NCBI GenBank assembly: GCA_028714495.1
Contig: JAQTMH010000001.1
Location: 179,814-243,813, forward strand
DNA length: 64,000 nt
Direction of reading: 5' to 3'
DNA from: Patescibacteria group bacterium
Lineage (GTDB): Bacteria > Patescibacteriota > Patescibacteriia > JAHIZJ01
How positions within the stretch are numbered: position 1 is the stretch's first letter; every line of letters starts with the position of its first letter. The translations under genes and the position numbers were made by a program. The notes under the pieces are model-generated. The model was not told the origin of the DNA and did no database searches. It was given only the letters and a program-made list of their open reading frames with translations. Positions 8,778 through 55,390 of this stretch are shown piece by piece.

Positions 8778-9303
8778 GACTTCCTCCCAAGAAATGAACG
8801 GCTAACCCCGGGTTTTTGCGCGGCGGTGCCTGTCCGCATTCCGGGTATTACCTGTTGGCACCGCTTTCTTTTTATCACATTGGGTTATTTTGTCAATACA
8901 AACTATATACGCAATCAAAGAAGTGATGTTTTCTTTATCCGCCTTTTTCGAAAAAATGTGACAAAAGCGCCGCCCCCAGACCTTCCTAGCCACTTTAGTG
9001 GCGTACCCGACTATCCCGCCATAGAGCGGGATCCCGCCTTCCTAAGATATTTTTATAATAAGGTGGCGGGAAATCGGTTTGAAGAAGAGCGGGCGGCGCT
9101 TTTCGTCAAGTTTCCGCACTCGAAGAAAATAAAAGCTCTCCTACCAAGTCGATAGCCATACAAGTCCGCAAATAACGCTGGCTTTTTATTATTTTGACTT
9201 GTTGGATAAAAGGTGATAATTTATTAGCTGCGTTCATTAACAGGAAAAGGGTCGGAAAACCCGAAGGTCAATAGACCGCCAGCCCAGGGAAGGAGGGGTA
9301 ATC

Positions 9304-14245: not shown

Positions 14246-14738
14246 GGTACTAGATAAACTCATTTGATCCTAAACAATAAATTTTATTACCTAATCTTAG
14301 CCAAAATACCCTGTTGATAACTTATTGGCTCTAGGCATTGACAATTTGTCCGACATCTTCTATGCTTGGGGGCTTAGAAGACAAAACAAAATCTTTACAA
14401 TATAATATTAATAGTATCCGTGAGGCGATGAACTGCAGCCTGAATCTGGTCGCTTTCCCCCTAGAGTTTATTAAACTTTTGGGGGCGGGCTGCGGGGAGC
14501 TAGTAGCGAAACCGACATGGCGGAGGAAGTCCTTCGATACCAAAAACTGCCGCCGCCTCACGCCCAAGAGGCGTTTTTTGTTGGCCTGACCTTATTACCG
14601 GTTGCCTTTAGTGAAATACCTAAAGACAGCCGGTTTGTAAGGTTACTAAGCTCTTTGACAACACGGTGTAAGCGGAACAAAACGCCGAAATACAGCGCGA
14701 AGTTGTTTTCGGGGTTACCACAAAAAGGAGGACCGGTC

Positions 14739-22122: not shown

Positions 22123-22140
22123 CCGTTTGAATTTAAATAA

Positions 22141-22318
22141 TTAGGACTTACGCGTTTGAGACAAGTTCGAGGAAAAATGCGAGGATTTTGCGAGGCGTAG
22201 TCAAACTACGACGAGCAAGGACGCAGCATTTTGACGAAGAAATTGGCCAAAGCCGCTTACTGACCCGGCTTCGCCGGGTCAGTAAGCGGCAAGCGCGTAA
22301 GTCCTAATAATCACGAAG
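22141..22318. mobile_element. MITE-like element with 13-14 bp terminal inverted repeats, copy 1
   Basis: ttaggacttacgcg ... cgcgtaagtcctaa termini; internal hairpins cgtagtcaaactacg and gcttactgacccggcttcgccgggtcagtaagc; second copy at 51253-51425. Confidence 0.6.
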
Positions 22319-25265: not shown

Positions 25266-26770
<1,505 letters not shown>

Positions 26771-26927
26771 CTAGGGAGAAAAGTAGGGCAGGAGCTCTCA
26801 TGTTCCTGAAAAACAATCGTACGGTGTACGTATTGCCTTACAACAGTGGTCGGACCCGATCCTCGAATTTATTTCGGGGCATCGGGAGTAAATGCCTTTC
26901 TTATCACCTTGAGGATGTCAATGGAAA

Positions 26928-26993: not shown

Positions 26994-27476
26994 CTAAACA
27001 AAAGACAAAACAAATCCGATTAATAGCCCAAAAACAAGAATAAAGCTGGCAAATTTCAATATTTTAGATTTCGGTTTTATCGAGTAATTCGTCATCGTCC
27101 AAATTTCGCGCATATATTCCTCGGCCATTTTATCGTCAGAATCGAATACCTTCTTCAATTTATCTTCGTATTCTTCGAGTCCTTTGTCCGAAAAACCCCA
27201 CCAGCAAATAAAACTAAGGCGTTCTTTCCGCTTTCCGCGAAAAGGAAGAAAAACAACAGTTATCGCCATAACGAGCGTAATAAAGGAGCTGATGGCCAGT
27301 ACCAAAAAATTTGAGGCCTCAATGCGAATCATACTCAATCCAAAGATAACCGCGGCGATGCCAACCAAGAAAGAAGCTTTCTGGTCCAAACTGCCCCGCA
27401 GGCTGTTTTGAAGAGTAAGTGAATCACGCAATAAATTAATCGAGTTTTGATTGACTACCATATTTTTATCGATCAA
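26994..27476 (-). CDS. hypothetical membrane protein
   Basis: 160-aa ORF with two central TM helices and one C-terminal TM helix; adjacent to tRNA cluster. Confidence 0.4.
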   Translation of the reverse strand: MIDKNMVVNQNSINLLRDSLTLQNSLRGSLDQKASFLVGIAAVIFGLSMIRIEASNFLVLAISSFITLVMAITVVFLPFRGKRKERLSFICWWGFSDKGLEEYEDKLKKVFDSDDKMAEEYMREIWTMTNYSIKPKSKILKFASFILVFGLLIGFVLSFV

Positions 27477-27570
27477 TTATCAAACTGCATAATCAAATTA
27501 TAACCATTAGTTTATCCATCGTTCTTGATTGGTCGGGGATCGCGGACTCGAACCGCGGACCTCTCGCTCC

Positions 27571-27846
27571 CCCGCCCGACTGCCATGTAATATTTCTGTC
27601 AAACTATTGGTTGGGACGGCGAGCCTCGGATTATAATCCGAGGGAAATTGCTGTCTTCCCGCACCGAGTCGGGGTGCGCGGACTTGAACCGCGGACCTCT
27701 CGCTCCCAAAGCGAGCGTTCTAGCCAACTGAACTACACCCCGACTCGAGGCAGGACGTGCTTCTGCACTACGCCCCGACCAATCGCTGGACTGAACAATT
27801 GTAATTATCAAAGTATAGAGCAACGTAAGCAGCCAGGGCGGGCGGG
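27571..27846 (-). other. 276-nt intervening sequence in tRNA-Pro carrying tRNA-Pro copy B; termini cccgcccg...cgggcggg
   Basis: begins cccgcccgccctggctgc and ends ggcagtcgggcggg in tRNA orientation; no ORF; no recognisable group I P/Q/R/S elements by eye. Confidence 0.5.
27669..27742 (-). tRNA. tRNA-Pro(TGG), intact, no encoded CCA, nested in the insertion
   Basis: cggggtg ta gttc agttggcta gaac g ctcgc tttggga gcgag aggtc cgcgg ttcaagt ccgcg caccccg a. Confidence 0.8.
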
Positions 27847-28046
27847 CAAAGCGAGCGTTCTAGCCAACTGAACTAATCCCCGATGAAAAAATCCCATGTT
27901 TGGGAAAAGCTTTTCTTGTTTTTATATTTTAAGCCTGTTTTTATTACCCGCTGGTGCCGAGGGCCGGAATCCCGCACCACGCAGGGTGCGGGACAAGTCG
28001 AACCAGCATAATTATGAAATGGGCCTCTTTAGTAATTCCGCCCAAA

Positions 28047-28119
28047 TGCCTGGGGTCGGAGTTGAACCGACGACGCAAGGATTTTCAGTCCTTCGCTCTA
28101 CCACCTGAGCTACCCAGGC
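28047..28119 (-). tRNA. tRNA-Phe(GAA), no encoded CCA
   Basis: gcctggg ta gctc aggtggta gagc g aagga ctgaaaa tcctt gcgtc gtcgg ttcaact ccgac cccaggc a; flanked by inverted repeat aattccgcccaaatgcc / ggcatttgggcggaatt. Confidence 0.85.
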
Positions 28120-28182
28120 AGGCATTTGGGCGGAATTGATTTCACAGTAGGATTATATTAGCATATTTCAGTCCGGAGTTCA

Positions 28183-28225
28183 CCCCGTGCTTGTCACGGG
28201 GCTCTACCGACTGAGCTACCTCGGC
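28183..28225 (-). pseudogene. tRNA 5'-half-like fragment fused to GC hairpin
   Basis: gccgagg ta gctc agtcggta gagc followed by perfect hairpin ccccgtg-acaag-cacgggg; no T-arm or acceptor 3' strand found. Confidence 0.35.
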
Positions 28226-28258
28226 AAGTGCCCACGGCACCAGCGGGAAATCAATATT

Positions 28259-28299
28259 TGGTGGGCGATCCAGGAGTCGAACCTGGGACCTCGTCATTA
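28259..28299 (-). pseudogene. tRNA 3'-half fragment (Ile-like), CCA encoded, no matching 5' half
   Basis: taatgacgag gtc ccagg ttcgact cctgg atcgccc a cca; closely resembles the 3' half of tRNA-Ile(GAT) at 28396-28472 but with a different acceptor. Confidence 0.45.
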
Positions 28300-28334
28300 C
28301 CCGCCCGACTGCTCCGCACTCGGAGGCGGGCGGG
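28300..28334. repeat. 35-nt palindromic element sharing termini with the tRNA-Pro intervening sequence
   Basis: cccgcccgactgctccgcactcggaggcgggcggg; termini cccgcccg/cgggcggg; same cccgcccgactgc start as the 276-nt insertion; abuts the tRNA 3' half in its anticodon-loop position. Confidence 0.5.
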
Positions 28335-28395
28335 TGACCCCGCACAACTCGCCAGAGCTCGTTTGCGGGGCAGGCGCGCTGAACTCACAGGCGGA

Positions 28396-28472
28396 TGGTG
28401 GGCATGGGAGGAGTCGAACCTCCGACCTCGTCATTATCAGTGACGCGCTCTAACCATCTGAGCTACATGCCC
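28396..28472 (-). tRNA. tRNA-Ile(GAT), CCA encoded
   Basis: gggcatg ta gctc agatggtta gagc g cgtca ctgataa tgacg aggtc ggagg ttcgact cctcc catgccc a cca; flanked by ggcggatggtg / caccatccgcc helix. Confidence 0.85.
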
Positions 28473-28807
28473 ACCATCCGCCCATGCTATGTTCTAAAAT
28501 ACACTTCCCGCCTCGCACTCGACGAATAACACGAGGAGTGGTTAGAATTAACCATCTGCTTGCCCTGAACCATTACAGTACAGGGCTTGCCCCGAACCGA
28601 ACGACCGAAGGGAGTTCTGGTTCGGGGAGCTAATCGCCCTCGATCGGTTTTTATGGGGGCACTCTGACTATCCAAATCATTTGCCAAAAAATGTACGGCA
28701 ACTCCCAAACTTTAACAGAAATAGAATGTTTTGACAAGGGGTGCTATAATAACTATAGACTATGGGTATTATCATAATAACTCGATAAAAAGTAAACATT
28801 CAATATA

Positions 28808-38668: not shown

Positions 38669-39595
38669 TCAACCCTGCCTAAGCTCAGTTATTATTTCTT
38701 TGAGTTGGGGAGGAAGGTCAATAAAAAACTTCTTTTCCTGACCAGCCGGATCGACCAAGGTCAAATGGTCGGCACAGAGGAACAGGCTGGTCCAGTGCTT
38801 TAAGCGGATATAACGTTTGATTTGATAAAGATTGTCGCCAACCAGCGGATGCCCTAAGCCGTGAAAATGAGCTCGGATTTGATGGGTTCGACCGGTCAGG
38901 GTGGTTACCTTAACCAGAGTGTATTTAGAAAACCTTTCGATAACTTCATACTCAGTCTCCGCCCATTTGGCGGGTTTCGTGCCAGGGGCGGTTTCTGAAA
39001 CACTGACTATTTTGCCGTCCTTTGAACGCTGCAGAAGGAAATTAATTGTGCCGCTGTCAGGTAAGCCCGCGCCGTAAACTAAAGCGGTGTAGCTTTTTTT
39101 AACAGCGTGAGCCTGAAAAAGCTTTTTGAAATGCTCAAACGCTTCCTGGGTGAGTGCCACGATCATTAAACCCGAAACTTCCTTATCCAGTCGGTGGACA
39201 ATGCCAGGACGCAAAGGGTCGTCACCAACTTTGATGATTTGAGGATATCTTGAAACCAAACCATTAACCAGGGTTTTGCTCTTGGTCGCCTCAGAGGGAT
39301 GGACGACCAGACCGGCCGGTTTATTGATTATCAGATAGTCGGGCGACTCAAAAACCGTCTCCCAGGTAATGGCCGGGTCAGGCGTTAAATCGATTTCCGG
39401 CGGTGATAATATTTCACCCGCGACAACATCGCCGCTCCGCAATTGCTGATGGGGCGAAGCGTCTTTCCCGTTGACCGATACCTGACCAGCGATAATCTGT
39501 TTCTGAATCCAGCTCCGGCTATAGCCCGGGAGCTGCAGACGAAGATAGATATCAAGCCGTTCTCCGTTTTTTTCGACTGTATATTTTATTTCCAT
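38669..39595 (-). CDS. rluD: RluA-family pseudouridine synthase with S4 domain (RluD-like)
   Basis: N-terminal S4 domain; LVVHPS...HRLDKEVSGLMIVA catalytic motif. Confidence 0.85.
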   Translation of the reverse strand: MEIKYTVEKNGERLDIYLRLQLPGYSRSWIQKQIIAGQVSVNGKDASPHQQLRSGDVVAGEILSPPEIDLTPDPAITWETVFESPDYLIINKPAGLVVHPSEATKSKTLVNGLVSRYPQIIKVGDDPLRPGIVHRLDKEVSGLMIVALTQEAFEHFKKLFQAHAVKKSYTALVYGAGLPDSGTINFLLQRSKDGKIVSVSETAPGTKPAKWAETEYEVIERFSKYTLVKVTTLTGRTHQIRAHFHGLGHPLVGDNLYQIKRYIRLKHWTSLFLCADHLTLVDPAGQEKKFFIDLPPQLKEIITELRQG

Positions 39596-41048
39596 ATTGA
39601 CGATCTAAAAATCCGAGGGCTTGCTTTTTAGTCCGTATCTTGCCCCGAAGCTGGGTTGCTCTCAATTGATGGATTATCTCTCCAATCAGAGGGCCAGGTT
39701 TAAGTTTTAATCGGGACATGATATCACGGCCGTTGAGCAAAATTTTCGGTTGCTTCTTTTTTTCATAACCAAGCCTTTTGATTTCCTTGGTCAGTTCCAC
39801 GGCATCGTAAAAATTCTTGAGTGAAGGCTCTCCCTCCATTGACAGACTGGCCGCCTGGTCGGCAAATATCAATTGGAGTAATTTTTGGCCCAGGGTCGGC
39901 TCGAGAAAATATTTTTCAAAGGTCGCCCGGTTAAACTTTATCGGGGAAGTGTGGGTAATGATCAAGTGGTAATGAATCAGCCAGGCCAGATGGCTTGAGT
40001 CAACTTTGCCCTGGTAACTTGAAAGGCGTAGACGTTCGGCGATATCAAAAGCCAGTTCGCCCCCTACTTGTTCGTGGCCGTAAAATGACAAGTGGTGGTT
40101 TAATCTAAGCTTCCGGGTATACGGCTTGCCGAGATCATGAAACAAAGTTGCTAAAATCAATTCTAAATCTGGCTTTACTCCTGGAAAATGCTTGTGAAAC
40201 ATCGGCGAAAATAAACGCTCCAACGCCAACCGGGTATGCGTCCAGACGTCGCCCTCAGAATGATATTCGGGTCCCTGCTGGCAATCTTTCAGATGAAGCA
40301 GCTCGGGGATCAAAGTCCGAAAAACGCCGCTTAATTCAAAAACATCAAACGCCCGCACCGCGTCAGCTTCAAAAGACTTGAGCAATTCGCGAGCGACTAT
40401 TTCCCGAGGCAGCTTTGAATTATTAAGAAACCCGATCATGGCTTTTGTTGCCTGCCAGGTTTTTGATTCAAAAGTAAACCGAAGCTGAATGGCCAGTCGC
40501 AGACCTCTCAAAATCCGCGAGTAGTCCTCTTGAAAACGTTTTTCGGTCTGTCCAACCGCCCGAATTATTCCAGCGGCTAAATCAGACAGTCCACCAGTTG
40601 GGTCAATGAGTTTTTTTCGCTTTAAATCCCAGGCCAGAGCGTTTATGGTGAAATCGCGCCTCAATAAATCTTCTTCAATCGGCATCTGATAATCAGTCTT
40701 GACCGCGAACTCGCGGTACCCGCCAGCCAGGTACAGCGAGTGTTCAGTCCGAGGTAGAGCAATATCGATCGGCTCGCCAAGAACAGAGTCTTTGGGCTGG
40801 AATTTAAATACCCCGAACGTTTTCCCTACCAGGTCAACTCGACCGAGACTTTTTAAAAATTTCTCCAGGGTGGCGGGCTTTACTCCGGAAATGACAAAGT
40901 CATAATCTTTTGAAGGCCGCCCCAAAATGATATCTCGAACCATGCCCCCAACCAGATACGCTTTGGCCTGGGGGAATTTTTTGAATAGCTTGGCGAAGTA
41001 GCCTAGGCTCGTTTCCTTGGCAATTGTTTGAGCGATATTTTCCATCAC
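39552..41048 (-). CDS. cca: tRNA nucleotidyltransferase (CCA-adding enzyme) with HD domain
   Basis: LVGGMVRDIILGRPSKDYDFVISG PolB-type head; HD domain (LFHDLGKP) C-terminal. Confidence 0.8.
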   Translation of the reverse strand: MMENIAQTIAKETSLGYFAKLFKKFPQAKAYLVGGMVRDIILGRPSKDYDFVISGVKPATLEKFLKSLGRVDLVGKTFGVFKFQPKDSVLGEPIDIALPRTEHSLYLAGGYREFAVKTDYQMPIEEDLLRRDFTINALAWDLKRKKLIDPTGGLSDLAAGIIRAVGQTEKRFQEDYSRILRGLRLAIQLRFTFESKTWQATKAMIGFLNNSKLPREIVARELLKSFEADAVRAFDVFELSGVFRTLIPELLHLKDCQQGPEYHSEGDVWTHTRLALERLFSPMFHKHFPGVKPDLELILATLFHDLGKPYTRKLRLNHHLSFYGHEQVGGELAFDIAERLRLSSYQGKVDSSHLAWLIHYHLIITHTSPIKFNRATFEKYFLEPTLGQKLLQLIFADQAASLSMEGEPSLKNFYDAVELTKEIKRLGYEKKKQPKILLNGRDIMSRLKLKPGPLIGEIIHQLRATQLRGKIRTKKQALGFLDRQYGNKIYSRKKRRTA

Positions 41049-41730: not shown

Positions 41731-41807
41731 TGGTGCGCGTACCTGGACTTGAACCAGGGACCTCCACAATGTCAATGTGGCGCTCTAACCAACTGAGCTA
41801 TACGCGC
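41731..41807 (-). tRNA. tRNA-Val(GAC), CCA encoded
   Basis: gcgcgta ta gctc agttggtta gagc g ccaca ttgacat tgtgg aggtc cctgg ttcaagt ccagg tacgcgc a cca; flanked by ccatcccccatcttcc / ggaagatgggggat helix; partial copy aatgtggcgctctaaccaac plus hairpin cccccgtgaaaacggggg upstream. Confidence 0.85.
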
Positions 41808-42071
41808 GCACTAGGAAGATGGGGGATCAATGTGGCGCTCTAACCAACCTTGCCCCCGTGAAAACGGGGGTGAGCTAGACGCCCACCTGAACAAACAAAA
41901 TAAATTTAACGACATACATAATCACTTCTTACCTCATAGTGAGCATGCCCCGGATTATCCCCGATTAAATCGGGGACGGGGGACCCCCTGCCTTATAGCG
42001 ACGCTTCTGATATTATGGAAAGGTGTTGTAGCGTCGATATATCGATGACCTACCTATTTATTCACATTCTC

Positions 42072-42148
42072 ATGGTGGGCATGGATGGATTTGAACCATC
42101 GACCCCCGTCTTATAAGGGCGGTGCTCTAACCGCTGAGCTACATGCCC
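42072..42148 (-). tRNA. tRNA-Ile with TAT anticodon (tentative), CCA encoded
   Basis: gggcatg ta gctc agcggtta gagc a ccgcc cttataa gacgg gggtc gatgg ttcaaat ccatc catgccc a cca; same acceptor as tRNA-Ile(GAT); one C-A mismatch in anticodon stem. Confidence 0.6.
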
Positions 42149-42273
42149 ACCATGAGAATTAAATTGTATAGGTCATCGCTATAAGGGCGGTGTCCCGATC
42201 GGCTTGGCCGCGTCAAGACTGCCTACCCCAAAATATGCCCTAACTTTCCGCCAAATATATTCAATTTCTGTGG

Positions 42274-49035: not shown

Positions 49036-49110
49036 TGGAGGCCAGGAGGGGAATCGAACCCCTGTATAAGGGTTTTGCAGACCCTCGCCTTACCGCTTGG
49101 CTACCTGGCC
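49036..49110 (-). tRNA. tRNA-Cys(GCA), CCA encoded
   Basis: ggccagg ta gcca agcggtaa ggcg a agggt ctgcaaa accct tatac agggg ttcgatt cccct cctggcc t cca; flanked by cacgctttgg / ccaaagcgtg helix. Confidence 0.85.
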
Positions 49111-49133
49111 ATCAGCTTCCAAAGCGTGGGAAC

Positions 49134-49204
49134 GGGATCCCGCCTTCATTATACTGTATAAAGGTGGCGGGACAGACCGCCGCCTTGCTACTTGGCTACC
49201 ACGC
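49134..49204 (-). pseudogene. degenerate tRNA-Cys-like tandem copy
   Basis: ggcgtgg ta gcca agtagcaa ggcg... retains the acceptor/D-arm of tRNA-Cys but anticodon and T arms are disrupted (cccgccacc...aaggcgggatcccg hairpin, also seen at about 9030-9070). Confidence 0.4.
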
Positions 49205-49278
49205 CAGATTACTGCGCTTTTACAACTATACCAAAAATTTAAAGAGGTGGTCAACGCCACTGCCACTAATTTAATCGG

Positions 49279-51439: not shown

Positions 51440-51630
51440 CCTTCGGGATGGGCCATCTTTTCGACCGAAGATTGGCAATATTTAATAGGGTATCCTGACT
51501 TATGGAGGAATTGCTCGTTGCGCCTTCCCACCCAGCCCATCACGATAGGCTGGACAGTGGCTTTTCACAACTTGCTTCTCCACTTACAGTGGCGGGACCG
51601 CGCTGGATTTTCACCAGCTTCCCCTTATAT
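51440..51630 (-). promoter_or_regulatory. cobalamin riboswitch
   Basis: minus-strand reading ggaagctggtgaaaatccagcgcggtcccgccactgtaagtggagaagc...aagtcaggataccc; diagnostic gguGAAAAUCC / CGGUCCCGCCACUGU core and B12-box-like AAGTCAGGA. Confidence 0.75.
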
Positions 51631-51785
51631 GTCTAATTGTTAATAAACTGCGACTTGACCTGTTGTTTTTTAATTCTAGTCTAAGCGTATTATGATGTCA
51701 AATTAGAATTCAAAATTCTAAATGTTAAATCATTGTTTCCGCCTCTCGACCCTGCTCTAGGCGGCTTCCTTCATTTTTAATTCTC

Positions 51786-55077: not shown

Positions 55078-55390
55078 AAGGAATTAGATCCCCGATTAAA
55101 TCGGGGACAAGATTAAAAATGTAAAAATTAATAAATAATAAGGAAAATTCGGGACTTAATTGAAGAGCAAAAAAAATTAAGCGGTTCTTCTGCCAATTTC
55201 ACCCTGCCTCCCACATCTCGTGCTGTGTTTATCAGTATAGCACAATTGTTCAGCCAGTGAAAAAAACAGTTAGCTTTATTTTTGGCTTATTTCAGGCCAG
55301 TAAACAAACGATGTGTGTCGGAAAACAAAATGGTGTGGATAACTTGATTGCTACTAGAGCGGAAAGCTGGATTTTCTTCAACTGGGCAAT

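Follow-up and report, generated by a model that had tools for sequence, protein, structure and literature searches.

Background

The 64-kb window analyzed here, i.e., the whole stretch of 64,000 nt from a Patescibacteria group bacterium, contains a tRNA-Pro(TGG) gene that is split in its anticodon loop by a 276 nt insert, and the insert carries a second, intact tRNA-Pro(TGG). This arrangement is termed a nest in what follows, and the outer gene parts are termed shells. Several described systems share properties with it. In fungal mitochondria, e.g., in atp6 of Allomyces, homing-endonuclease insertions carry a partial duplicate of the target gene and the displaced part of the target is left as a pseudogene. 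The Pro nest would be similar in that a non-splicing insert in an essential gene is made harmless by a replacement segment and the relic stays adjacent. It differs in that the target is a tRNA gene, a complete gene is carried, both old halves are kept as a shell, layers are stacked and GC-rich hairpins are present in the relics.

Integrative elements that insert into tRNA genes also supply a 3' segment of their own by which the gene is restored; their att sites are located in anticodon or T loops. A preference for breaks in the anticodon loop, a relic fragment at the far end and a gene that stays functional are common to both. However, the Pro nest lacks both an integrase and a direct repeat of that segment, its insert is 276 nt and not kilobases in length, and both halves are displaced yet complementary. 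Mobile GC-rich palindromic hairpins that insert into genes include the yeast mitochondrial GC clusters, the double-hairpin elements of Allomyces and the Rickettsia palindromic elements. The hairpins of the nests are likewise short GC-rich fold-backs that vary between strains and are tolerated in loops of structured RNAs, but they are nearly confined to tRNA relics, have (T)CCC...GGG(A) ends and can surround an entire tRNA gene.

Disrupted tRNA genes of Archaea comprise non-canonical multiple introns, split and permuted tRNAs, and transposing introns of the Thermoproteales (PMC4390854, PMC4090602, PMC10714607). They share with the nests the insertions in D, anticodon and T loops, the GC-rich helices that join halves, and the same ends in different tRNAs. 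In contrast, the host here is a bacterium, the junction has no bulge-helix-bulge (BHB) motif, there is no known splicing endonuclease, and the outer copies are often incomplete. In addition, an intact copy of the same tRNA is present inside the insert, which archaeal introns do not have. In Patescibacteria, tRNA-Asn and tRNA-Asp are interrupted at position 35/36 by group I (IA) introns (PMC13011429). These are from the same phylum and occupy the same unusual site. Unlike them, the inserts described here have no detected core, interrupt other tRNA identities, are found with the same ends at lengths down to 34 nt, and have a tRNA inside.

Phage T4 SegB is a free-standing GIY-YIG homing endonuclease encoded in a tRNA gene cluster (PMC2330249). 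In relatives of the bacterium a small GIY-YIG gene is similarly found among tRNA genes, and cleavage of naive genomes would co-convert the nuclease gene and flanking tRNA sequence. Unlike the SegB system, the host is cellular, and the open reading frames (ORFs) of the relatives are ~80 aa in length and encode a catalytic domain only, with cleavage activity predicted. These ORFs are within the disrupted tRNA copy and a full replacement copy follows, and the Pro nest of the window is without a nuclease gene. For Patescibacteria, full-text searches of the literature yielded no account of tRNA genes nested in one another or of fusions between GIY-YIG and tRNA genes. The kind of element is one already known, i.e., a mobile insertion made harmless by a self-supplied copy of its target; the whole-gene cargo, the stacked layers and the loop-specific GC hairpins are what is unusual here.

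Results and discussion

Structure of the tRNA-Pro nest

We favor, with some reserve, a reading of the Pro locus as a Russian doll at the DNA level: a working tRNA-Pro gene (T0) would sit inside the relics of two earlier tRNA-Pro genes (T1 and T2), as a result of serial in-place replacement that was probably driven by a nuclease or by recombination. The features of the locus are as follows.

27847–27882, minus strand: outer shell T2, 5' half of tRNA-Pro(TGG), nt 1–35 (from the sequence)
27530–27570, minus strand: outer shell T2, 3' half of tRNA-Pro(TGG) (from the sequence)
27571–27846, minus strand: insertion at anticodon position 35/36 of T2, 276 nt (from the sequence)
27828–27845, minus strand: 5' arm of the terminal GC clamp, CCCGCCCGCCCUGGCUGCU, which pairs with 27571–27584 in the minimum free energy (MFE) fold
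27571–27584, minus strand: 3' arm of the terminal GC clamp, GGCAGUCGGGCGGG (MFE fold)
27750–27783, minus strand: middle shell T1, 5' side (MFE helices)
27606–27662, minus strand: middle shell T1, 3' side (MFE helices)
27669–27742, minus strand: inner intact tRNA-Pro(TGG), T0 (ARAGORN; Rfam tRNA model, 68.2 bits)
27664–27748, minus strand: extended acceptor helix of T0, leader UCGAGU paired with A73 and trailer CUCGG (repeat I4; 14-bp helix in the MFE fold)
27892–27905, minus strand: terminator-like hairpin and T6, directly upstream of the T2 5' half (consensus scan only)

The 5' half of T2, CGGGGATTAGTTCAGTTGGCTAGAACGCTCGCTTTG (minus strand 27882–27847), consists of the acceptor strand CGGGGAT, the D arm, the 5' strand of the anticodon stem and the loop nucleotides TTTG. 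The 3' half, GGAGCGAGAGGTCCGCGGTTCGAGTCCGCGATCCCCGACCA (minus strand 27570–27530), has the anticodon-loop nucleotides GGA, the 3' strand of the anticodon stem, a T arm with the loop TTCGAGT, the acceptor strand ATCCCCG, an A, and CCA; it is also present, with the same sequence, in Logan contig L133. When the halves are joined, ARAGORN calls a canonical 77-nt tRNA-Pro(TGG) in which the acceptor stem is 7 bp and CCA is encoded, and with the insert removed the canonical cloverleaf and the identity elements are present. The original prediction, a model's reading of the sequence alone, had described the two halves as one tRNA-Pro(TGG) with these properties, and it is exact to the base. It had also placed the 276 nt insertion after anticodon-loop position 35. 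The break is indeed between nt 35 and 36 of the anticodon; the junction can be read as 34/35 as well because a G is shared. The intron-permissive ARAGORN run that was suggested as a check leaves the outer gene uncalled at the setting used here (-i0,400).

The insert starts with CCCGCCCG and ends with CGGGCGGG, which are the termini first described for it. T0, the intact and distinct CCA-less tRNA-Pro reported inside the insert, is recognized by both ARAGORN and Rfam and is the sole Pro gene that they call on the genomic sequence. It has the acceptor CGGGGTG/CACCCCG and the T-loop TTCAAGT and is presumed to be the working tRNA-Pro gene of the nest. Of 74 positions, 5 differ between T2 and T0: four make up two compensatory acceptor pairs (6-67 and 7-66) and the fifth is a G/A difference at position 57 in the T loop; positions 8–36 are 100% identical.

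Mapping of the MFE helices reveals a third, degenerate tRNA-like shell, T1, between T2 and T0, which had been missed in the original prediction. Its 5' side consists of a leader AUUGGU, the acceptor strand (C)GGGGCG, a short D arm (GUGC-AGAA-GCAC, i.e., 4 bp with a 4-nt loop) and the anticodon-stem strand UCCUGC. The 3' side has the anticodon-stem strand GCGGGA, a variable region, a T-arm-like hairpin (27643–27624), the acceptor strand CGUCCC, an A, and ACCAAU. AUUGGU pairs with ACCAAU, the acceptor stem is 6 bp, and a 20-nt hairpin replaces the T arm. The T1 leader, GATTGGTCGGGG, is also complementary to the T2 3' end, CCCCGACCAATC (repeat I11). The 6-bp anticodon stem of T1 runs on into the extended acceptor helix of T0, and the whole 353 nt sequence folds as three nested cloverleaves in the MFE model, with z = -5 relative to shuffled sequences.

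A scan for promoters and terminators is uninformative on separate transcription of the inner gene, apart from the terminator-like hairpin upstream of T2. Directly downstream of the nest, at 26994–27461, is a gene for a 155 aa PycTM (Pycsar effector-like) membrane protein; an adjacent cyclase gene is not apparent.

Intron and integrase properties of the insert

The insert does not have the properties of known introns. A Rfam 15 cmscan of positions 27300–28600 at E ≤ 10 gives no match to group I, group II or other ribozyme families, only tRNAs and chance miRNA-like matches, and the whole window has no ribozyme or intron family at the Rfam gathering threshold. This agrees with the earlier remark that no group I elements could be seen, and it is the outcome of the Rfam check proposed at that time. 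A group I core (P3–P9, with the guanosine-binding P7) is not detected in the Pro insert. The end rule of group I introns (U as the last exon base and G as the last intron base) fits only the 34/35 reading, TTT/G...GG/GGGA, where slashes mark the junctions, and homologous Ile inserts follow A35. Group II domains V/VI have no Rfam match, and the ORFs of the insert are spurious only, 74–86 aa in length and running across the tRNA. Removal of T0 and T1 leaves 63 and 35 nt, and a ribozyme would need ~200 nt of intron proper. The fold of the insert is a single long helix bearing the cloverleaves, with no catalytic core seen.

At the junction, the 5' strand of the MFE fold has a bulge of 4 nt and the 3' strand runs through without one. 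A BHB motif, which requires two 3-nt bulges on opposite strands with a 4-bp helix between them, was rejected, as the best manual threading gives 3 of 4 central pairs and a wrong loop length and the MFE fold disagrees with it. Neither EndA nor RtcB is found among the ~19 ORFs scanned in the 64-kb window and two sister-strain loci (the sister strain is described below). ORF scans also show no integrase in or near the Pro insert. An integrase att relic was rejected: there is no integrase, and the outer pieces are complementary halves rather than direct repeats of the tRNA 3' segment.

Other nests and hairpins in the window

Nesting recurs at most tRNA loci of the window, with full or partial copies at no fewer than six tRNAs besides Pro, which was likewise not noted before. 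The tRNA genes for Phe, Ile(GAT), Val(GAC), Ile(TAT) and Cys are nested in the same manner as Pro: each is an intact gene that has a 16–32-bp leader/trailer helix and interrupts another copy of the same tRNA in its anticodon loop, and the outer copies are decayed to varying degrees. The nests are as follows.

27952–28225, minus strand: tRNA-Phe nest; outer 5' part 28225–28165, inner Phe 28120–28046, outer 3' part 28007–27952
28259–28639, minus strand: tRNA-Ile(GAT) nest; outer 5' piece 28639–28627, inner Ile 28472–28396, outer 3' half 28299–28259
41731–42240, minus strand: nests of tRNA-Val(GAC) and tRNA-Ile(TAT), from same-tRNA copies
49036–49205, minus strand: tRNA-Cys nest; outer 5' half 49205–49173, inner Cys 49110–49036

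The Phe nest has a hairpin at 28200–28183 in the outer 5' part, a perfect 19 bp helix around the inner gene, and a T-loop hairpin and CCA in the outer 3' part. In the Ile(GAT) nest there are D-loop hairpins by the outer 5' piece, a 17-bp extended inner helix and a shell fragment at 28385–28335. This fragment is followed by a hairpin (28334–28300) whose termini are the same as those of the Pro insert. The 10-nt start of the Pro insert recurs here, and the 13-mer that ends the Pro insert, GCAGTCGGGCGGG, has exactly two occurrences in the window, the second (28300–28312) directly before the 3' half of the relic tRNA-Ile. ARAGORN reports a "tRNA-???" with a 4-base anticodon at 28259–28354; this is a false composite of the Ile shell fragment, the hairpin insert and the relic 3' half. 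The Val(GAC) nest has an outer 5' part at 41884–41827 and the inner gene at 41807–41731, and the Ile(TAT) nest has an outer 5' part at 42240–42181, the inner gene at 42148–42073 and an outer 3' part at 41994–41939. Partial copies are also present: tRNA-Leu has two 5' copies upstream, and both tRNA-Gly genes have a 3'-end copy downstream with the same 24-nt hairpin before each copy. The window tRNAs that have no shells, Ala and Val-TAC, have no extended helices.

The D, anticodon and T loops of the shells are interrupted by small GC-rich hairpins with (T)CCC...GGG(A) ends. Nine of the window's 23 strongest GC hairpins fall within nests, which represent 4.9% of the window sequence. Inverted-repeat ends of the type (T)CCCGCC...GGCGGG(A) are common to different tRNAs. 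The Cys insert starts with TCCCGCCACC...GGCGGGATCC, and this 5' module is shared with the Ala insert of the sister strain and with window positions 9071–9032. The latter are part of a long inverted repeat at 8965–9100 (minus strand), where AAAAGCGCCGCCC ... GGGCGGCGCTTTT surround the module TCCCGCCACC-[AT-rich]-GGCGGGATCC and a second hairpin. No tRNA and no Rfam family are found at 8965–9100, which may be a nest that has lost its tRNA or a small RNA of another kind. An identical 19-nt hairpin, TCCCCGATTAAATCGGGGA, is present in the T loop of the relic tRNA-Ile(TAT) (41958–41976) and 13 kb away at 55089–55107, just past the end of an ORF, and this suggests that the hairpins are copied or mobile. 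An intergenic 22-nt inverted repeat (91%) at 22137–22311 encloses a perfect 18-bp hairpin (22252–22290) and has no Rfam match.

Comparison with a sister strain

The NCBI metagenome-assembled genome (MAG) GCA_028717285.1 is ~98% identical to the window. The genes of the two differ by 198 synonymous and 35 non-synonymous codon changes, and because of this ratio the MAG is considered to represent a natural sister strain, and the idea that the window might be an altered version of the NCBI record was dropped. In its homologous locus (L131) the 276 nt Pro insert has one single nucleotide polymorphism and is otherwise identical, and an alignment of the Ile-Phe-Pro cluster shows no differences in the inner tRNA-Pro and inner tRNA-Ile. 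The outer Pro of the sister strain, by contrast, is wrecked. It has 50-nt and 42-nt insertions in the D loop, flanking GGCTA, and 59 nt in place of 12 nt of the T arm, so that no T-stem 5' strand is left. With the inner copy identical and the outer one in this state, purifying selection on the outer Pro copy is not borne out in close relatives. The intact and the wrecked variants are both taken to be real because a Logan contig (run SRR22315509) independently has the clean outer 3' half of the window. The same Pro junctions are found in the window, in the MAG and in the Logan contig.

Other nests also differ between the two strains. The relic Ile of the sister strain (L131) reads CTGA/34-nt hairpin/TAA, i.e., it is a clean 35/36 insert with the ends of the Pro insert; it also carries a T-loop hairpin, which the window copy lacks. 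At the corresponding site of the outer Phe the hairpin is a different one, and the Phe nest is rearranged. In the window the tRNA-Ala gene is uninterrupted, but the sister strain has it split at 35/36. The Ala insert there begins with TCCCGCCAC...GGCGGGATCC; within it lies a tRNA-Ala that lacks CCA and has an extended helix of 13 bp, and downstream are a 3' half in decay and ~0.9 kb of extra DNA.

Among the inner genes, CCA is not encoded in Pro (27669–27742) and Phe (28046–28120) of the window or in Ala of the sister strain (L001, 16369–16445). It is encoded in the outer copies of Pro, Phe and Ala and in most other tRNAs. A gene for a CCA-adding enzyme is located at 39552–41048, between two tRNA nests.

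Empty sites and nests in related genomes

Filled and empty target sites are both found among close relatives, as a search proposed with the original prediction had anticipated. In addition to Ala, which is whole in the window, there are two examples for Pro. An uninterrupted tRNA-Pro in L025 has the acceptor (CGGGGAT/ATCCCCG), T-loop (TTCGAGT) and trailer (ACCAATCAA) of T2. The close relative L113 has the gene order Ile-Phe-Pro-PycTM as in the window, and its stand-alone tRNA-Pro is identical to T0 at 74 of 74 positions, with CCA and without paired flanks. In L113 the Ile gene is un-nested, and the Phe gene is nested with the outer hairpin of the window. The acceptor variants of the window have matches in different genomes: the inner Pro matches L113 and L120 and the outer Pro L025, and the inner Ile matches L006 and the outer Ile L110 and L120. 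Because the inner and outer variants are typical of different lineages, import is suggested rather than local duplication.

A wider survey was made by scanning metagenome contigs with a 25-mer of 16S helix 45, which gave 120 Candidate Phyla Radiation (CPR) loci. Fragments were required to be ≥18 nt in length at ≥94% identity and to adjoin the same tRNA. These stringent criteria were adopted because a loose survey had a noisy control, neighbouring tRNAs sharing words of the D and T arms. Same-tRNA fragments (5' upstream and/or 3' downstream) are found in 17 of 126 sources, 120 of which are the related metagenome loci. A nested tRNA gene, which had been called highly unusual, is so for bacteria in general but is commonplace in this lineage. 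Homologous Ile inserts at 35/36 are present in the window, the sister strain, L006, L110 and L060, and the ends of the insert are common to four genomes. The clearest example is L110, where the outer halves of tRNA-Ile (1–36 and 37–77) flank the inner gene and both are 100% identical to it; the insert starts with CCCGCCTGCC and ends with GGCGGGCAGG. A scan of genome contigs with a conserved Ile-flank motif recovered only the known L006 contig and two chance matches. Two exact-pattern scans of viral contigs, one with the inner Pro body and one with the Ile 5' half plus insert start, gave no match, and a phage origin of the cassettes was rejected on this result.

The surroundings of the cluster vary. 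The 16S gene of the window (25266–26770) has no 23S gene after it. An element, AATGCCTTTCTTATCACCTTGAGGATG, is kept between 16S and the PycTM-like gene (window 26891–26927; L006 571–607; L113 ~455–480) in a spacer that is otherwise poorly alignable. The Ile-Phe-Pro cluster is convergent with 16S in the window, L131 and L006 and co-oriented in L113 and L120, and from this difference in orientation the cluster has been inverted in some lineages. Elsewhere in the window are a c-di-GMP-II riboswitch (14412–14526) and a cobalamin riboswitch (51468–51659), both unexpected in a small Patescibacteria genome; the latter is upstream of genes that include a cobalamin adenosyltransferase and a B12-dependent ribonucleotide reductase.

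GIY-YIG genes associated with nests in relatives

In related genomes, small ORFs that encode GIY-YIG proteins (Pfam PF01541, E of 1e-15 to 1e-17) are associated with nests. In 5 of the 6 loci found they are ≤ ~130 nt from a tRNA, and in L055 the 5' half of the outer Phe and the inner Phe exactly flank the ORF. Each of four homologues in further genomes is fused to a tRNA (Phe, Asn or Ile): the first 10 nt of the tRNA belong to the ORF, whose stop codon is the conserved TAG of nt 8–10, and RNase P cleavage of a co-transcript would therefore remove this codon. The ORFs are 79–89 aa (L134 1501–1814; L135 1271–1584; L137 1501–2101; L139 1–260 and 1501–1941; L055 266–640), and L137 has two GIY-YIG-tRNA units in tandem. 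A nuclease gene inside or adjoining such nests or tRNAs is present in L055, L120, L096, L113, L024, L134, L135, L137 and L139.

A 5' relic of the same tRNA is found upstream of all four GIY-YIG ORFs for which upstream sequence is available (L134, L135, L137 and L139), and these relics end in or just before the anticodon loop. The D-loop palindrome CCTGCCTGCCGGCAGGCAGG, or an expanded form of it, is present in the relics of L134, L135 and L137 and also in L055; the L139 relic has a different hairpin. L139 also has a tRNA-Phe that is complete, its sole defect being the palindrome CCTGCCTGCCGGCAGGCAGG (20 nt) in the D loop. The pattern of ORF and relic is that expected if a homing-type element cut a tRNA gene, repaired it with its own copy and left the displaced part behind. 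The window itself has no GIY-YIG gene (tblastn with two GIY-YIG queries), and the nuclease step can for this reason be put forward for the Pro nest only by analogy.

Proposed origin of the nest

According to the favored reading, a GC-rich fold-back insertion with the ends (T)CCCGCC...GGCGGG(A) would enter a loop of a resident tRNA gene, most often at 35/36, and would bring, or later gain, a complete tRNA of the same identity. The new copy would assume decoding and the halves of the old gene would persist as flanking relics. These would then decay by deletions and by further hairpin insertions in the D, anticodon and T loops, and repeated rounds would give several layers. Double-strand breaks made in tRNA genes by small GIY-YIG nucleases are the probable driver, and recombination, with the conserved tRNA halves as homology arms, may spread the insertions from strain to strain. 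In the transcript, the role of the long terminal helices is probably limited to pairing of the relic halves with each other, so that the inner pre-tRNA could fold and be released by RNase P and 3' processing. It is most likely that the outer tRNA-Pro is never reconstituted. The architecture and its recurrence, the differences between strains, the empty sites and the GIY-YIG genes at nests of relatives are direct observations; the nuclease as driver, the order of these events and the lack of splicing are what we infer from them. The original prediction had offered, as one of two possibilities, a small mobile element that brings a replacement tRNA with it. This is close to the favored reading in light of the filled and empty sites, the repeated use of 35/36, the shared ends and the GIY-YIG genes elsewhere; no nuclease gene is present in the window to match it.

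The relic reading is preferred because the shells are dispensable in relatives, wrecked in the sister strain and often incomplete elsewhere. Several points weigh on the other side. Neither the Pro nest of the window nor its immediate surroundings contain a gene for a nuclease, integrase or transposase, so the driver is deduced from other genomes, no target-site duplication is visible, and we know of no transposition mechanism for such hairpins. The outer halves of the window are flawless, with the compensatory acceptor pairs kept, and those of L110 are the same as the inner gene; drift would be expected of a decaying relic, except after a recent event or where gene conversion keeps the copies alike. 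Some of the flanking "debris" is conserved, at ~85% over 190 nt that include the 77-nt inner tRNA-Ile, between genomes with 93% identity over the last 453 nt of 16S. Two compensatory changes in one shell hairpin between the window and L006, by our reading of the alignment, hint at constraint. The direction of hairpin change between the window and the sister strain, gain or loss, is argued from parsimony only. Some room is left for a role at the RNA level, or for splicing, because the window has a flawless outer Pro, some outer copies equal the inner gene and one hairpin has compensatory changes.

The other possibility that had been raised, a self-splicing or protein-assisted intron, is not supported by the data. 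In this reading the outer gene would be a true intron-containing tRNA-Pro, and the insert and the D- and T-loop hairpins would be cut from the RNA by a novel Patescibacteria endonuclease and joined by a ligase; the enzyme would recognize the GC helix stacked on the anticodon stem and the locus would give two tRNA-Pro molecules. The joined T2 halves do form a perfect cloverleaf with CCA, and the helix-forming ends of the insert directly abut the exons. The split is precisely at 35/36 in Pro, Ile, Val and Ala, a site enriched for tRNA introns in Patescibacteria (PMC13011429), the L139 tRNA-Phe is complete but for its palindrome, and the L110 outer halves are identical to the inner gene. Against this, no ribozyme family matches, and the single bulge of the junction (4 nt, 5' strand) does not make a BHB. 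Many outer copies lack a half, the anticodon or the T arm, and the sister-strain outer Pro has no T-stem 5' strand at all. Relatives do without shells, and cleavage of the inner tRNA by RNase P and RNase Z (3' processing) would not yield exon ends. In the sister-strain tRNA-Ile an insert with the termini of the Pro insert is only 34 nt. We therefore regard splicing of this kind as unlikely. The same doubt applies to the broader proposal that the GC-clamped inserts in tRNA loops, from 18-nt hairpins to 276 nt, represent a new class of bacterial intervening sequence removed by protein, with a functional outer Pro and one tRNA made from the intron of another. A functional role of the shells without splicing, e.g., as scaffolds for the folding, processing or stability of the inner pre-tRNA, or as decoys for tRNA-binding factors, would account for insertions that hit loops and leave stems intact, for the cloverleaf outline kept by T1, and for the ~85% conservation, with two compensatory pair changes, of the Ile shell fragment and hairpin between the window and L006. 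It is quite improbable in view of the stand-alone T0 in L113 and the stand-alone Ala in the window, the gross differences in shells between ~98% identical strains, and the un-nested tRNAs of the same genome that have no such helices.

Nests could also arise with no mobile element or nuclease, if slippage or template switching at cloverleaf-forming tRNA DNA produced partial tandem or fold-back copies that then underwent gene conversion. The Leu 5' copies include copies of the upstream flank, the 3' copies of Gly and of L110 Pro share the same trailer, and L060 has a clean tandem duplication of the 3' half and trailer. Several hairpins resemble inverted T arms, and the leader-trailer helices resemble fold-back products. 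But the flanks of the outer and inner Pro are unrelated, a fact on which simple tandem duplication was rejected as the origin of the Pro nest. Furthermore, the inner and outer acceptor "alleles" match different lineages, the insert ends are common to different tRNA identities, and the Ala polymorphism includes ~0.9 kb of foreign DNA. This origin is given a small but real chance. A last consideration is that the locus might be an artefact of assembly from mis-joined metagenome reads of repeated tRNA sequence, given the many near-identical 30–40-nt repeats of the region and a break of Logan contig L133 within the inner tRNA. However, the junctions are shared by the window, the NCBI MAG and the Logan contig, analogous nests are present in dozens of unrelated JGI, ENA and NCBI assemblies, and assemblers do not create compensatory helices. 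With three independent assemblies and many unrelated metagenomes in agreement an artefact was rejected, and its probability is considered very slight.

Conclusion

If the inserts were spliced after all, which is the minority reading, they would represent a new kind of bacterial tRNA intron. Under the replacement reading the nests account for odd or unclassifiable calls that tRNA finders make in such genomes, and the relic shells are fast-evolving and usable as strain markers. If this reading is true, an essential and universal class of genes is repeatedly overwritten in place in a streamlined bacterial lineage. The host would be spared by a spare copy of the target and not by splicing, which would be a third strategy beside self-splicing introns and inteins and the restoration of att sites. 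The hypothesis also ties a very large family of tiny GIY-YIG nucleases to tRNA genes.

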